A stretch of DNA of 20,000 bases from Rozella allomycis CSF55 (Eukaryota). The notes below the pieces were generated by a model. That model was not told where the DNA came from. It saw only the letters and a program-made list of their open reading frames with translations, and did no database searches. The stretch spans positions 49,650 to 69,649 of the forward strand of contig KE560790.1 of assembly GCA_000442015.1 (NCBI GenBank), in the 5' to 3' direction. A program made the position numbers and the translations under genes. Shown in pieces: positions 253 to 20,000 of the stretch. The first letter of the stretch is position 1. Every line of letters starts with the position of its first letter.

Positions 253-1502
253 TTATTTTGCATCCATCTCTAATTCTTCGGGGATTGCATAGTTCAATAT
301 CGAAGCGACTCCCGTAAGTTGTGAAAGTTCTAGATATTTAAAAAAATCGATAGTTACTCTCTCCAGTAATATGAGAACTCGAAAATATATAAACGTTAGC
401 ACCCTGCCGCTTGGCATGTTCAACAAGGGCAATATATTTTTTTCTCGTGGGAATATCTGCCGATCTAAAAAAGCATACTATAATATCTACCTGAATAGAC
501 CGTCAGTAACAAACAATGTTTTAATTGCATGATTTTCTGCGGCGATATTGACACTGTCGAAACCGTATGTGACTCTGTCAGGATCATGCTTTAGCATTTC
601 ATGAAATTTATTAAATTCTTTAATTTCTTTGGCATATTTAGTATCTGATAGTCTATGTTGTATACTTGGATCTTGCAAAACTTCACTCAACGCAGACTTA
701 TGCCCTGTTGAGCAATGGACAAGTAAAAACTTATTCTTAGCATCAAAAATTATTTTAGAGTTTTGGGATTGAGCTTCCTTCATGATGTATGAAAATAATT
801 GATCTTTCAAAAACCCGGGCGAAGCAATAATGATAGCTTTCATATCCGCTAGCGGGATATGTTTAATTATAGCATTATAAATCTGCTCCATAAACTTATT
901 TTGTGCCTTTTCTCTTTGAGTGGTAGATCCTAATCTCTTTTTCGGTATATTCACCTCTATTCTTTGCATCACAACAATCATATTGTCTGTAACTAAACAT
1001 ACATTGGCCAATCCTAATTTACGGAGTACAGAATAATTACCATCTTGCAAAATTACAGCCCCAATTTCCGCCTTACTTTTCACGTGACAAATCTGATCTA
1101 TACGCTCCAAACTAATAATATCCCACTCATCTTTAAAGAGCTTGAACTCATTATTAATACAAAGATCAATTGTATGATACGACCCCAGTTTAACGTGTTT
1201 ATTTTCCACACAGACTCTGCCGTTAACTCTAATAACACCCATAGACATATCTCCCTCAATAGCGTATATTTCAATAGTTAGATACAATCGCATTTTGTTT
1301 GAGTCAACACTGCCAGTTGAAGATTCTGTCTGTACTTTCCTGTTTTAATTTGAAATGCAACAATATACCTTATTGTACTACAAGTAAGCTTATCACCAAT
1401 ACATAAGAGATTATATATATGCCACATATCTTCTAAATCTTCTGGTAGCAATTTAATCGTTCCAGAGGCATCTTTTTGCAAAAATTTATGCAAAACTTTC
1501 AT
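253..1502 (-). CDS. DOM34: Pelota/Dom34 ribosome rescue factor (eRF1 family), ~379 aa, 5 exons
   Basis: N-terminus MKVLHK...LLPEDLEDMWHIYNLL, plus VKLGSYHTIDL, IIIASPGFLKD and a C-terminal SSSHITGEKLSQLTGVASILNY. Removing introns 1340-1368, 1014-1040, 465-490 and 330-357 gives one open frame ending in TAA at 255-253. Confidence 0.96.
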
Positions 1503-1524
1503 TTATGAAAAATCAGACATCAAA

Positions 1525-1998
1525 TTATGAATTAAGCCATTTATTAAACAAATCTGCAGTGCCTGAGATATTTTTATAGTTTTCATCGCCTAGAAATGAG
1601 CTTGTACTACATGGTAATTGCATACCTTCAGCATTTACCAGCACCAAAGTATATGAAGAGTGTTGTTTAATTAATACATTATGTACCTGCTCCTTTGATT
1701 CCAATTTTATTATTGAGCTAAGGCAATGTTCATTTATCAAGAACCCTAGTTTTGTTTGCCTCTTTATCGCTGTTCTTTCTTTCCTATTAACAATAATTGT
1801 CTCCTTGAAGCTTAATGAATTAAAACCAAGAATTAGTGACATAAATATTGCAACGGATTTCCAAGGCCATTGATCCTCTAGCGCTGCGAGAAATAAGCCA
1901 ACTAGAACAACACCAGTGGAAAAGATGTGCTCTTTATATTCAGGGTATATTGTTAGTTGTGAAATATTGTCTTCTGATGTTTTTAGTTCTATTGACAT
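1525..1998 (-). CDS. Two-TM membrane protein resembling CYBC1/EROS (C17orf62), 157 aa, intronless
   Basis: Two hydrophobic segments joined by D-x-x-x-WK, followed by E-T-I-I-V-N-R and a C-terminal YTLVL...GMQLPCSTSSFLG...ADLFNKWL. By eye this aligns with my recollection of human CYBC1 (DSLGWKL, EEAIFDK, YMVVLRLATGFSHPLTQSAVMG...AKLITSFL). Confidence 0.6.
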   Translation of the reverse strand: MSIELKTSEDNISQLTIYPEYKEHIFSTGVVLVGLFLAALEDQWPWKSVAIFMSLILGFNSLSFKETIIVNRKERTAIKRQTKLGFLINEHCLSSIIKLESKEQVHNVLIKQHSSYTLVLVNAEGMQLPCSTSSFLGDENYKNISGTADLFNKWLNS

Positions 1999-2136
1999 CC
2001 TTAATTACTTGTCGCCTGTCGGAGTTTTGATATGCAGAATTCATATTTCATATTGAGAGCAAAATGATAAAACTAAGTAAATGTAAGATACATCGAAGAG
2101 CAAAACTTTATTAAAACTCACAATTGCTCGTTATAC

Positions 2137-16660: not shown

Positions 16661-16735
16661 GTTGTAAATTTCCGATCCAAGGCCCTAGCACTCGTGATCT
16701 TAAAAATAGTTTTTTCCCATGCCGAATTTTCCAAA

Positions 16736-17219
16736 ATGGTGAAACCAACATTTACTCAAGGTTGCTTTTATTTGATCAACTCTTGTGTCTTATCCGCATT
16801 GCCATTGTGTAAGAGGTATTTTATGTTTTAAGAGACTTGTTTACTGAAATCAAGGGATTTACTTTTGCAGAAAATCAGTTGGTTTTAGGTATTCCACTAT
16901 TGCTTATGGCCTTGGCAATGCCTGTAGCGTATCACAATTGTAAAAAGACAAAACTGATATCGTAACCGAGAGTTTGAGTTAAAATAGGATTGGAGAGCAA
17001 CTAAAGGCCAACAAATCAAGTGATACCGCTGAATTACCGATTTACGAAAAGATGGCACTTGCTTATTCCGTCTTTTTCAACAATGTAATGTTTCTTGGCG
17101 TGTTTTTGTTTGTAACCGGTGGACTATTTTCCAAAGCTGGCGAGCAAGCTGAAATAGTGTTATCGATTATTATCCCAGTGTTAACGATGATTTATTTAAC
17201 ATCTCCTGCTAGACAATAA
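16736..17219 (+). CDS. SSR3: Translocon-associated protein gamma subunit, 143 aa, 3 exons (not in ORF track)
   Basis: Removing introns 16809-16834 and 16962-16987 gives four hydrophobic segments with FYLINSCVLSALPLYLF, AYHN and AYSVFFNNVMFL. These match my recollection of SSR3 FFGNAFIVSAIPIWLY, AYKN and TFSIFYNNTLFL. Confidence 0.82.
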
Positions 17220-17266
17220 TAAAAAAGGTTTCTTTGACCCTTGTCATTTAGTGTGAATTTGTGAGG

Positions 17267-20000
17267 ATGGTTAGTGATGGAACACCACGCCTAACTTTGA
17301 GCAAGATGGTTCTCGTTAATTTTAAATCATATGCTGGCCGACAAACGATAGGGCCTTTTCACAAGGTATTTAATGATTTGTTTAGACAATCTAGTCGTTT
17401 AGTAGTATTGTAGGACCCAACGGGAGGTAAAATACGATGTGAAAATTTATAAAAGTGGAAAGAGCAACGTTATTGATGCGCTGTTGTTCGTTTTTGGGTT
17501 TCGCGCCAAAAAAATGAGGCAGGGAAAACTGAGTGATTTGATTCATAATTCAAAGGAATATCCGAATCTGGAGTATTGTGCTGTAGAAATATATTTTGAG
17601 GAGATTATTGATCTTGATAATGTAGGGAATAGTGCTGGATTTAAATAGGGGGAGTATAAAGTTGTTCCTGATACTGCCATGACTATAATTAGAACTGCGA
17701 ATAAGCAAAACAAGAGTACATATACGATTAATGGACAAAATTATTCCTTTAGCCAGGTATGAGAAAGTAGTGTTTTTGAATAGGTATTTTCTTTAGATGC
17801 TGAAGATTAGGTTATTAGTCTGTTGAAAGAAAAGGGAATAGATTTAGATCACAATAGATTTTTGATATTGCAAGGAGAAGTAGAGTCGATAGCATTAATG
17901 AAGCCTAAAGCACCGAATGAGCATGAAGATGGATTGTTGGAGTATTTAGAGGATATTATTGGGACTAGTGATTATAAGGGACAAATAGAGGAAGCGAATA
18001 AAATATCGGAAGAGTTGAATGCTGAAAAGGATGTGATGATTAATAGAATAAAGATAGCGCAAGATGAAAAGGATGCATTGCAAGTAAGACTGTGTGAATG
18101 AATGGATAGGATAAAAAGGAAGAAGCAGAGAATTATTTGAGGATGGAGAATGAAATTGCGAAAAAGCAGAATTTGTATTATCAAATAAAGATAGACAAAG
18201 TGGAGAGGGAATATGGTGAAGTGAAGGAAGAAATTGTAAGAAATTCTAAATGGAATGAATTATAGACTAGAGTGAAAGAGGAAATTGAGAAAGAGGAAAA
18301 GAGTCATTTGGGGCAGATTGAAGAGATCAAGGAGATGGAGAATAATTATGTGTTGAGTGAAAAAGAGTATCAAATATTGAAGGGGAGAGTGGAAGAGATG
18401 GGCAAGGAGATTGGCAAGATGGACAAGGAAGAGATCCAAATGCAGGAAAAGAAAAAGTATATAATGAATAAGCAAAAGAAGATTACAAAGAATATTCAGA
18501 GTGAGAAATCAGAGCTTGGATTGAAGATGGATAATGTGAAGAGTGTTGAAGAAGAAACGCAAAGCAATGACAAGGAGATTGAAGTGTTAAAAGAAAGGTT
18601 GATTAAGGAGGAGGAAGTGTTGGAAGAAATTAGAAATAGTTTGAGTGGTACAATGAATGAATTGATTTTAAGTAGGAAAGACTGATGTGTTTCAGGTTGA
18701 GTTGGAAAAGAAGCAAGTTGAGTTGTCACCTTGGACAGAAAAGATATTTAAAGTTGAATCTGAAATAAAGATATTGAACAGTGAAAAGGAGTTGTTGGAT
18801 GAGAAAATCAATTATCAAGAAAATGCAGAGAAAAAGATTAAAGAAGAAATAAAAAAGATTGAAAAAACAATTCAAGATAAAAGACCGGGGTATGAAGAGG
18901 GAAGAAAAGAATTTGAAGTTTTAAAGAGTTTGTCAAGGGAGGTTGAAGAGGAAATCAAAAAGATTGAAGAAAAAGAAGAAGAAAAGAAGGAGATTTTGTC
19001 TAATTTGAGTTTTAAGATTAATGAAAAGAAGAATGAGAGTATGAAGATGAATAATAGAAATTTGATAATGGAGAATATAATGAAGGAAAAGAATAGTGGA
19101 AGAATTAAAGGCATTCATGTAATAGAAATGATTGAAGTAGAGTAGGGGAGATTAGGAGATTTGGGGATGATAGAAGAAGAGTATGAGATAGCGATATGTA
19201 CAGTGTGTAGTAGATTGGATAACATTGTTGTTGATTCAACAGAGAGTGCCGAGAAATGTTTGGAGATTATTAAAAAGAGAAATTTGGGAAGAGCAACATT
19301 TATAGTTTTAGATAAATTGGATAAAATAAAAATGAAGAGTGAAAATTTACCCATGAATTCCAAGAGATTGTTTGATTTGATAAAACCAAAAGATGAAGTT
19401 TATTTAAAGGCATTTTATTTGGCTCTTGGAGAAACATTGGTTACAGATAATTTGAACAATGCGAATAAAATTGCATTTAATTCAGGAAAGAGATATAAAG
19501 TTGTAACGTTGGATGGAAAGATTATTGATTCATGTGGAACGTTGACTGGTGGTGGGAATAAAGTGATTAAAGGAAGAATTGAACTATTAAATAATTTGAA
19601 CAAACATGAATTCATCGATAAAGGTGAATTCAATAAAGGTGAACTATTGAATAAAAGTGAACTCAACAATCGAAATAAATTTAAACAAAATGGTGAATCT
19701 AGAAAAGAAGATTTAGAAAAAATGGAAAAAGATTTTCAAGATGAAATTAAAAATTTAGATGAAATAAAAAGAAATAAAATGGATTTGATAGTAAAGTTGA
19801 ATCAGCTAAATCAATTAATTTCAACAAATGAAGTAAAATTTAGAAAAATGGAAATGGAAATTTCTAGTTTAGAAAATGAATTGAATCAAAAAAATAAAAA
19901 TCTAAATGAAATAAAAAGATCATCAAATTCTCCAAATGTAAAAGATCTTGAAAGATTTAAAAAAATTAATTCTGAAATTTCCAAAAAAGATCTAGAAATT
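17267..20000 (+). CDS. SMC4: Condensin subunit SMC4, partial (runs off the 3' end of the window)
   Basis: NFKSYAG...IGPFHKSFSSIVGPNGSGKSNVIDALLFVFGFRAKKMRQGKLS, GIDLDHNRFLILQGEVESIALMKPK, coiled coil, and hinge GIHGRLGDLG...LGRATFI...VVTLDG...GTLTGGG. Introns at 17366-17394, 17427-17455, 17622-17648, 17757-17810, 18084-18109, 18236-18265, 18648-18675 and 19119-19145. Confidence 0.97.
17757..17810 (+). other. 54-nt intron made of two abutting 27-nt GTA...TAG units in SMC4
   Basis: CAG|gtatgagaaagtagtgtttttgaatag|gtattttctttagatgctgaagattag|GTT. Each half carries an in-frame stop. Confidence 0.8.

Follow-up and report, generated by a model that had tools for sequence, protein, structure and literature searches.

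Fifty introns of 26 to 32 nucleotides in a 20-kb stretch of the Rozella allomycis genome are probably recognized largely by position

Short introns were analyzed in a 20-kb stretch of contig KE560790.1 from Rozella allomycis CSF55, a cryptomycotan parasite on the branch toward the microsporidia; this whole stretch is termed the window. Fifty segments of 26 to 32 nucleotides (nt), located between positions 330 and 19145, interrupt the genes of the window and, on the basis of the DNA and of homology, appear to be introns. All of these segments start with GTA and 48 end with AG. Counting from the first G of the donor, an adenine was present at +23 in 42 of the 50 introns regardless of their length, and the acceptor was, in 48, the first AG to have its G at +26 or later. 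The best explanation, in which we place moderate confidence, is that these are shrunken but ordinary spliceosomal introns that are read largely by position, with a donor-anchored branch adenosine followed by use of the first AG.

Gene models were rebuilt without reference to an earlier list of introns for this DNA (referred to here as the original prediction), using six-frame maps, a small dynamic-programming modeller, frame-by-frame reading and a curation that worked from coordinates only. Curation followed open reading frame (ORF) logic with an intron search range of 22 to 36 nt, and trial runs were made at 15 to 80 nt and 18 to 45 nt. The first curation yielded 48 introns, the removal of which left uninterrupted frames in ten genes. 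A decoy and in-frame scan of the exons added two introns, one in Pelota (1040-1014) and one in ARP5 (14122-14148), resulting in the final sample of 50 from this one window; some of the statistics were computed on the first 48. This independent rebuild reproduced every tally of the original prediction, which had counted 50 introns of 26 to 32 nt, all with a GTA donor, and had listed the acceptors as TAG in 32, AAG in 13, CAG in 2, TTG in 2 and GAG in 1. The lengths exhibited a single narrow peak (mean, 27.5; standard deviation, 1.4) with a floor at 26 nt and a decaying tail, there being 13 introns of 26 nt, 15 of 27 nt, 11 of 28 nt, 7 of 29 nt, 2 of 30 nt and 1 each of 31 and 32 nt. The donor was GTAA in 39 of the 50. 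In the exons, the last base ahead of the donor was G in 25 of 50 cases and the first base past the acceptor was a purine in 41 of 50 (p ~2e-4 relative to exon composition). The lack of a pyrimidine tract, reported for many of the introns, was also borne out, as the stretch from +24 to -4, which is 0 to 6 nt long, consists of 42% A, 42% T, 12% C and 5% G. With respect to U2-type features, GT was found at the start of all 50 introns, AG at the end of 48 and a candidate branch A at +23 in 42. Intron density in the window was 2.9 per kb of coding sequence (CDS) over 12 genes.

Forty-six of the introns are needed for an open frame or for removal of an in-frame stop codon. The other four are in frame and contain no stop: RIO2 12465-12436, Pelota 1040-1014, DUF1295 2996-2970 and ARP5 14122-14148. 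Two of these optional introns are backed by homology, the RIO2 intron by Pfam coordinates and the Pelota intron by Pelota/Dom34 structures in the PDB, while the DUF1295 and ARP5 segments are putative introns.

Placement of the junctions was examined by searching exons singly and asking whether neighboring exons abut in the coordinates of Pfam profiles, PDB entries or homologues, including alignments of 40 fungal PEPCK and 30 SMC4 proteins. Exact continuity was detected at seven of seven junctions in PEPCK, eight of nine in SMC4, three of four in RIO2 (introns 1 to 3) and one each in Pelota, DUF1295 and ARP5. The ninth SMC4 junction (intron 3) is in a variable loop and has one gap. Junctions beyond these homology-checked ones were placed by frame restoration alone. 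The two TTG acceptors and the SMC4 double intron of the original prediction were supported by Pfam coordinates, PDB alignment and homologue alignments. For the first TTG acceptor, that of the 29-nt PEPCK intron 5 (9639-9611, minus strand), the PEPCK_ATP match of exon 5 covers profile positions 265 to 370 and the exon ends at 371, exon 6 begins at 372 (372 to 410), and the junction reads KEPAATFS compared with a fungal consensus of TEPQATFS, without a gap; the next AG occurs only at +42. For the second, that of the 28-nt RIO2 intron 3 (12145-12118, minus strand), the RIO1 profile runs from 1 to 63 and then from 65 (or 64) to 159, and past +7 there is no AG within 68 nt of the donor. These two introns contain, respectively, a CTAAC and a TTAAT motif with the A at +23. 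At the TTG positions, the public models of two annotation sets both avoid an acceptor, which bears weakly and indirectly on the possibility of an assembly error.

The double intron consists of SMC4 introns 4 (17757-17783) and 5 (17784-17810), both on the plus strand and 27 nt long, which meet as AG/GTA at 17783/17784 with no exon between them. Each half has a GTA, an A at +23 and a TAG at 27. The flanking exons abut, without a gap, at residues 140/141 of Chaetomium Smc4 (PDB 6qj2_A) and likewise in human SMC4 (9f5w_B). Because the flanking exons abut in these Smc4 structures, all 54 nt of the spacer must be removed and no coding residue is missing. Several other solutions were produced by loose runs of the modeller and were rejected. 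A 55-nt ABCC intron, an alternative to intron 5 of that gene, deletes part of the nucleotide-binding domain, and a single 54-nt SMC4 intron, a GTT donor in Pelota and read-through of the PEPCK TTG intron delete or scramble conserved blocks. A 25-nt form of SMC4 intron 8 with an AAG acceptor was also rejected, as this form would add one residue relative to the 30 homologues.

Performance of the spacing rule was dependent on the threshold. The two introns missed with a threshold of +26 were the TTG introns, and the number of correct acceptors was 47 of 50 with a threshold of +25 and 35 of 50 with +27. Earlier AGs were passed over in 30 of the first 48 introns, and those nearest to the threshold ended at +22, +24 and +25. 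Two introns quoted in the original prediction, SMC4 intron 9 (19119-19145) and ARP5 intron 3 (13454-13479), have the sequences given there and pass over AGs ending at +7, +19, +22 and +24 and at +5, +14, +17 and +19, respectively. Shorter in-frame acceptors that keep the ORF are present in just four introns (PEPCK intron 2, ARP5 introns 2 and 4 and SMC4 intron 8), and the spacing rule is therefore not circular for most of the introns. Homology rejects three of these four alternatives; the choice for ARP5 intron 4 is based on frame. The acceptor had been described as permissive, but the base at -3 largely follows the AT-rich composition. Relative to the intron interior (34% A, 43% T, 9% C and 14% G), the order of preference at -3 is T > A > C > G, with G occurring once, so that base composition largely accounts for the abundance of AAG acceptors.

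The adenine at +23, which the original prediction had not noted, was the strongest interior signal. In the first 48 introns, 41 of which have this A, the +23 column contained 0.84 bit as compared to a 99.9th percentile of 0.25 for the null (P ~3e-13 relative to the frequency of A in the interior and 3e-7 relative to a frequency of 0.5). In the full set, an A at +23 was present in 12 of 13 introns of 26 nt, 12 of 15 of 27 nt, 10 of 11 of 28 nt and 7 of 7 of 29 nt. The best column obtained by anchoring on the 3′ end had an A in 30 of 50 introns, and in 5,000 trials with anchors shifted at random by at most 3 nt, no best column rose above 34. The position of the acceptor varies over seven positions, 3 to 9 nt past +23, while the A stays put. 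The surroundings of +23 are faint, with a T at +21 in 30 of 50 introns, a pyrimidine at +24 in 26 of 42 and at most 0.13 bit in each of the flanking columns; the context from +21 to +24 is reminiscent of yUnAy, the universal consensus for the branch. No strong branch motif capable of predicting the acceptor by itself was found, as a leave-one-out, 7-nt model of the branch that used sequence only (1.32 bits) located +23 in 11 of the 50 introns and picked the correct acceptor in 29. The proposal that the 3′ site is set mainly by distance from the donor was accurate in that distance predicts the acceptor in 48 of 50 introns, but the element at a fixed distance seems to be the A at +23 and not the acceptor.

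These features can be combined into a mechanism. The introns would be nuclear spliceosomal introns of the GT-AG type, reduced to roughly the minimum size that still works. The 5′ end would be recognized as GUA, mostly GUAA, and the adenosine 23 nt from the first G, in its faint U-n-A-y context, would act as the branch point. The 3′ site would then be the first AG with a G at least 3 nt past the branch adenosine (i.e., at +26 or later and, in practice, 3 to 9 nt past it). An AG with its end at +24 or +25, and thus overlapping or adjoining the branch adenosine, would be unusable, and when no AG is available in the range, a UG at the usual distance would be taken, as in two of the introns. The 54-nt spacer of SMC4 would represent two complete 27-nt units, the removal of which presumably takes two steps. 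Several observations would be accounted for by a branch A at +23: the disregard of AGs with ends at +24 or +25 (ABCC intron 2, TRAP-gamma intron 1 and, in SMC4, introns 8 and 9), the floor at 26 nt, the ability of the TTG introns, which have the best branch-like motifs, to manage without an AG, and the make-up of the double intron as two complete units. From these positional data we infer that the +23 A is the branch point and that the spliceosome enforces the spacing, which would then be more than an end point of shrinkage. Furthermore, we lean towards a real upper limit on the donor-to-A distance, given that this distance has almost no tail, that TTG introns occur and that the SMC4 spacer is built of tandem 27-nt units. 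A stricter version, which can be proposed only tentatively, is that the spliceosome selects the branch by counting about 23 nt and not by a motif, uses the closest AG located 3 nt or more beyond it, or a UG if none is within range, and is unable to bridge longer distances, such that longer spacers would require tandem 27-nt units removed in succession. If true, branch counting would mean that a culturable relative of the fungi and microsporidia defines its introns with a genuine molecular ruler that acts from two sides.

A different explanation, and one that we regard as unlikely, dispenses with a ruler and attributes the uniform size to compaction of the introns to two independent lower limits, with conventional recognition of the branch and scanning for an AG. 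The genome is indeed very compact, having 12 genes in 20 kb and convergent stop codons separated by about 10 nt; moreover, the yUnAy-like context, with its excess of T at +21 and of pyrimidines at +24, and the shape of the length distribution, a hard floor at 26 nt and a decaying tail, are as expected for such a process. However, the motif is too weak to be found without positional information, the model of 1.32 bits having found the +23 A in only 11 of 50 introns. The two distances also behave differently, as the donor-to-A distance is nearly free of a tail (exactly +23 in 42 of 50) while the A-to-acceptor distance is tailed (3 to 9 nt). Scanning would be expected to take the TTG introns to the next AG, at +42 in one case and not within 68 nt in the other, but the inferred acceptors of these introns are at the usual distance, and the 54-nt spacer is constructed of two full units instead of one longer intron.

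Direct measurement from the donor to the acceptor, with no branch element recognized by either sequence or position and with use of any suitable dinucleotide at about 26 to 32 nt, was judged to be less likely again. The success of the first-AG rule from +26, the occurrence of TTG and GAG acceptors and the low information content of the columns beside +23 are all compatible with this explanation. Against it, no interior position is as constrained as the A at +23, the acceptor being spread over seven positions, and the skipping of AGs at +24 and +25 follows from the presence of a branch A whereas a ruler acting from the donor would have to set this limit by fiat. Splicing chemistry, in addition, requires a branch nucleotide. 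It is scarcely credible that the interruptions are not spliceosomal and are due to assembly errors, pseudogene damage, elements excised at the DNA level or programmed frameshifts, as 50 interruptions in ten unrelated genes all have GTA and a length of 26 to 32 nt, 48 of them end in AG, their removal results in gap-free alignment to homologues, seven DNA-type sequencing runs contain the stretch with the introns in place, and public annotation handles several of them as introns.

Some of the findings weigh against a positional reading with a branch adenosine at +23. Eight of the 50 introns lack an A at +23; in five of these an A occurs at +22 or +24, and in three at neither. In the 13 introns of 26 nt, the distance from the A to the G of the acceptor is just 3 nt, which is shorter than the usual branch spacing, and the +23 A could belong to another signal. 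The narrow lengths could be the end point of a deletion bias acting against two lower bounds, with no two-sided ruler being involved. The TTG acceptors depend on homology and on the sequence of a single assembly, the 15- to 80-nt search gave some other solutions that were discarded on homology or frame, and four introns, two of them putative, are not required by an ORF. Splicing was inferred throughout from DNA and homology alone, for 50 introns in one 20-kb window.

Exonic GTA sites are a further difficulty, since 47 of 156 have their first AG at 26 to 32 nt. The description of the introns as having a ruler-like code hence stands for placement of the acceptor but not for definition of an intron, for which GTA plus spacing is insufficient. 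Requiring an A at +23 reduced the 47 look-alikes to 10, and addition of an A or T at +4 reduced them to 4; these two features together retain 38 of the 50 true introns. The first 26 nt also differ in composition, with a mean of 6.1 G+C bases in true introns and 9.2 in look-alikes. Exonic GTA was not strongly avoided in the window but showed a mild deficit, the number of sites being 0.92 of the Markov-1 expectation (off-frame, 89 versus 103 +/- 7). One of the four, at 17942-17968 on the plus strand, has GTAT, an A at +23 and a TAG at 27, is in frame and is located within an SMC4 motif that is conserved and can be aligned to known structures. It is therefore a genuine look-alike that is not spliced, or at least not for the most part, and it must either be protected by something beyond the signals listed here or be subject to low-level splicing.

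Ultrashort introns have been described in several other lineages. Ultrashort introns with a GT(A) donor are established in Paramecium, the Bigelowiella nucleomorph and dicyemids, and no branch signature was reported for them by Irimia and Roy (PMC2483917). Introns of Paramecium tetraurelia average 25 nt and have strong GTA and TAG sites (PMC8997360). The Rozella introns resemble those of Paramecium in being numerous, very narrowly distributed in length and bounded by GTA as the strong donor and TAG as the strong acceptor, with overall weak signals and intron definition (PMC8997360, PMC2483917). There are, however, multiple differences. Paramecium has a deficit of introns with lengths divisible by three (3n) and an excess of in-frame stops (PMC5014332, excerpt), neither of which was detected in the Rozella sample: 17 of the 50 introns are 3n (p = 1.0 versus one-third), and stops are present in 13 of these 17 as against 13.3 expected from shuffles, although both tests have low power due to the small sample. 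Furthermore, a branch signature was not reported for Paramecium by Irimia and Roy (PMC2483917), whereas an A is fixed at +23 in Rozella, and the two organisms differ in lineage, Rozella being on the fungal stem, and in genetic code, Rozella having the standard code with TAA stops.

The introns of myxozoans and dicyemids, with a median of about 22 bp, contain weakly conserved A's that are located farther from the AG as introns lengthen and that the authors consider to be the branch site (PMC13644364, 2026, excerpt). The lack of a pyrimidine tract and the donor-anchored pattern of A's are shared with Rozella, but the myxozoan and dicyemid A's form weak stretches of two to three whereas Rozella has a single position with an A in 84% of introns. 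In the excerpt, the list of lineages with introns of <30 bp (ciliates, Microsporidia and Dicyemida) omits Rozella. Stentor coeruleus, which has introns of 15 to 16 nt, is similar in having a strict GUA, no branch consensus and a putative branch A at a fixed position (PMC9505925, excerpt); this A is the 10th of 15 nt or the 11th of 16 nt and is, therefore, 3′ anchored, unlike the 5′-anchored A of Rozella. Branch-to-AG distances of 3 to 5 nt are preferred in some Candida species (PMC2483917, excerpt).

Encephalitozoon cuniculi belongs to the sister lineage, the Microsporidia, and, like Rozella, to which it is related as a parasitic lineage, has short introns. This species is intron poor, with a strong donor, (GT)AAGT, and CTAAYTT as its branch motif (PMC2483917), while the Rozella window contains introns at a density of about 2.9 per kb of CDS, GTAAGT in only 2 of 50 introns and a branch motif of 1.32 bits that finds 11 of 50. 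Two putative introns of about 30 nt without the E. cuniculi motifs were noted previously in the S23 gene of Rozella (Whelan et al., PMC6349667), and an intron density of 2.5 per kb has been given for Rozella (PMC8476143) compared with 2.9 per kb here. Median intron lengths of fungi range from 29 to 197 bp according to Ciobanu et al. (PMC8042348). No analysis of Rozella splice signals was found in the full-text literature, the coverage of which does not include the original genome paper (James et al. 2013). Rozella is thus a new and poorly described case within the known class of ultrashort introns represented by ciliates, myxozoans and dicyemids.

The SMC4 double intron is reminiscent of recursive splicing. 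In the Ubx gene of Drosophila, zero-length exons act as "ratchet" sites that subdivide very long introns. The double intron similarly has an abutting acceptor and a regenerated donor, and, as an AG/GTA without an intervening exon makes stepwise removal the natural reading, the two halves would probably be spliced out one after the other. The known examples of recursive splicing are, however, in very long introns, while the SMC4 case comprises two minimal 27-nt units totaling 54 nt.

Public protein models of Rozella are affected by these introns. In EPZ35649.1 (838 aa) and RKP17420.1 (676 aa), RIO2 is fused to PEPCK across a 367-nt intergenic gap (window positions 9118-12688, minus strand), and both models lose conserved blocks at several of the tiny introns, including both TTG introns. 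A partial model, RKP19388.1, ends precisely at the donor of the RIO2 TTG intron. For SMC4, no Rozella protein was present among the best 120 matches listed. Incorporation of the spacing rule into a splice model should improve the Rozella proteome, which is widely utilized in fungal and microsporidian phylogenomics. More generally, the minimum size of an intron and the means by which splice sites are found when motifs are nearly absent are open questions that have been studied mostly in ciliates. Rozella provides an independent, intron-rich case on the fungal stem, beside the intron-poor and motif-rich microsporidia; its unusually clean positional signal, an A at +23 and an acceptor at or beyond +26, leads to simple testable predictions, and the window is a compact natural case of how small a spliceable intron can be.

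The window is AT rich (G+C content, 30 to 37%) and contains 12 tightly spaced eukaryotic genes that use the standard code, 10 of which have introns. A PEPCK exon was 100% identical to proteins of Rozella allomycis CSF55, and the next matches, with identities of at most 86%, were to other early-diverging fungi. All 11 complete CDSs stop with TAA, and TAG and TGA are unused as stop codons. An Rfam scan of the window gave no matches at the gathering thresholds.

Pelota/Dom34 (253-1502, minus strand) has four introns. Intron 1 (1340-1368; 29 nt, CAG) separates eRF1_1 profile positions 1 to 43 from 47 to 123. Intron 2 (1014-1040; 27 nt, TAG) is the one from the decoy scan, and its retention would result in an insertion of exactly nine residues relative to mammalian Pelota and fission-yeast Dom34 in the PDB (5lzw and 3mca). 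Intron 3 (465-490; 26 nt, TAG) has no A at +23 and is required by the frame, the eRF1_3 profile being roughly continuous across it. Intron 4 (330-357; 28 nt, GTA to TAG) is also placed by frame and is followed by a last exon without a Pfam match. The stop codon of the adjacent Eros/Cybc1-like gene (1525-1998, minus strand), which contains none of the 50 introns, is 22 nt ahead of the Pelota start codon (1502/1525). This ORF matched the Cybc1/Eros family over profile positions 7 to 161 of 185 with a score of 25.4 bits, relative to a Pfam cutoff of 27. In the DUF1295 membrane protein gene (2137-3107, minus strand), the ORF stays open when the putative intron 1 (2970-2996; 27 nt, AAG) is read through. 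The DUF1295 profile runs from 13 to 128 and then from 129 to 209 across intron 2 (2613-2639; 27 nt, TAG), and intron 3 (2331-2359; 29 nt, CAG) is placed by frame, an in-frame GAG 3 nt further on being a possible 32-nt alternative.

The gene for the ABCC transporter (3559-7537, plus strand) contains six introns. Five were placed by frame: intron 1 (3747-3772; 26 nt, TAG), intron 2 (3870-3897; 28 nt, TAG), which passes over an AG ending at +24, intron 3 (4613-4641; 29 nt, AAG), intron 5 (6958-6985; 28 nt, TAG) and intron 6 (7098-7125; 28 nt, TAG), the exon after which matches ABC_tran profile positions 97 to 137. Intron 4 (4796-4822; 27 nt, AAG) removes an in-frame stop. The stop codons of this gene (7537) and of a convergent orphan gene (7548) have 10 nt between them. 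The orphan (7548-9056, minus strand) encodes 503 residues, has an N terminus that is hydrophobic by eye and is the only long gene of the window without introns; its sole match among 5.8 billion clustered proteins was to itself.

All seven introns of ATP-dependent PEPCK (9118-10921, minus strand) are gap free relative to the 40 homologues, and successive exons cover successive parts of the PEPCK_ATP profile. The profile runs from 2 to 59 and then 62 to 113 across intron 1 (10664-10689; 26 nt, AAG), resumes at 115 (to 168) after intron 2 (10471-10498; 28 nt, AAG), at 170 (to 262) after intron 3 (10277-10302; 26 nt, TAG) and at 265 (to 370) after intron 4 (9963-9991; 29 nt, AAG). Past the TTG intron, positions 372 to 410 are followed by 411 to 436 after intron 6 (9467-9493; 27 nt, TAG) and by 438 to 464 after intron 7 (9359-9386; 28 nt, TAG). 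In the RIO2 kinase gene (11289-12688, minus strand), the Rio2_N profile runs from 1 to 14 and then from 16 (or 15) to 59 across intron 1 (12599-12625; 27 nt, TAG). Across intron 2 (12436-12465; 30 nt, TAG), the stop-free optional intron, the profile continues at 62 to 82 with one split codon between, and the same splicing is present in public models P0122 and P0123. RIO2 intron 4 (11809-11836; 28 nt, TAG) is placed by frame.

The Arp5-like actin relative, ARP5 (12709-15050, plus strand), has ten introns. Intron 1 (12812-12837; 26 nt, TAG) is required by the frame, and intron 2 (13144-13169; 26 nt, TAG) separates Actin profile positions 13 to 110 from 114 (or 113) to 190. The 26-nt intron 3, with a TAG acceptor, is also placed by frame and has no in-frame alternative. 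Intron 4 (13594-13621; 28 nt, AAG), which lies in an insert region, lacks an A at +23 and was placed by frame alone. Intron 5 (13896-13927; AAG), with 32 nt the longest of the set, has its A at +24 and is required by the frame. The putative intron 6 (14122-14148; 27 nt, AAG) came from the in-frame scan, is very AT rich and is within a low-complexity insert. Intron 7 (14288-14318; 31 nt, AAG), placed by frame, has no A at +23, and intron 8 (14384-14410; 27 nt, TAG) removes an in-frame stop. In the exon preceding intron 9 (14655-14682; 28 nt, AAG), another frame-based intron, the Actin match ends at profile position 293, and the exon following intron 10 (14751-14777; 27 nt, AAG), which removes an in-frame stop, covers positions 328 to 405.

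Both introns of the ubiquilin gene (15161-16277, plus strand), at 15464-15489 and 15613-15638, are 26 nt long, end in TAG and are placed by frame. RAMP4 (16389-16660, minus strand) has three introns with TAG acceptors. Intron 1 (16628-16654; 27 nt) removes an in-frame stop and follows a first coding exon of 6 nt (16655-16660), consisting of an ATG and one codon, for which the start codon is a prediction. Intron 2 (16542-16567; 26 nt) is placed by frame and precedes an exon that matches the RAMP4 profile, and intron 3 (16433-16459; 27 nt), with an A at +24, removes an in-frame stop. The gene for the TRAP-gamma-like protein (16736-17219, plus strand) contains the only GAG acceptor, that of intron 1 (16809-16834; 26 nt), which passes over an AG ending at +24 and was placed by frame alone; a 55-nt alternative from a downstream GTA is possible. 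Intron 2 (16962-16987; 26 nt, TAG) was also placed by frame, and the next exon matches TRAP-gamma weakly.

SMC4 (plus strand) extends from 17267 to the end of the window, with only the first 828 residues included. In addition to the double intron, it contains seven introns, all but one of which, intron 3 (17622-17648; 27 nt, TAG), are gap free in the alignment with the 30 homologues. Intron 3, in the variable region, removes an in-frame stop, as do intron 7 (18236-18265; 30 nt, TAG) and the 27-nt intron 9, with a TAG acceptor, after which the SMC_hinge domain begins in the next exon. Intron 6 (18084-18109; 26 nt, TAG) is required by the frame. At intron 8 (18648-18675; 28 nt, TAG), which contains an in-frame AAG ending at +25, the junction reads SLSGKTDV compared with a consensus of SLKGKTEV. 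Introns 1 (17366-17394; 29 nt, TAG) and 2 (17427-17455; 29 nt, AAG) are located between SMC_N profile positions 2 to 24 and 36 to 85 and flank a 32-nt micro-exon (17395-17426) that encodes part of the Walker A region.

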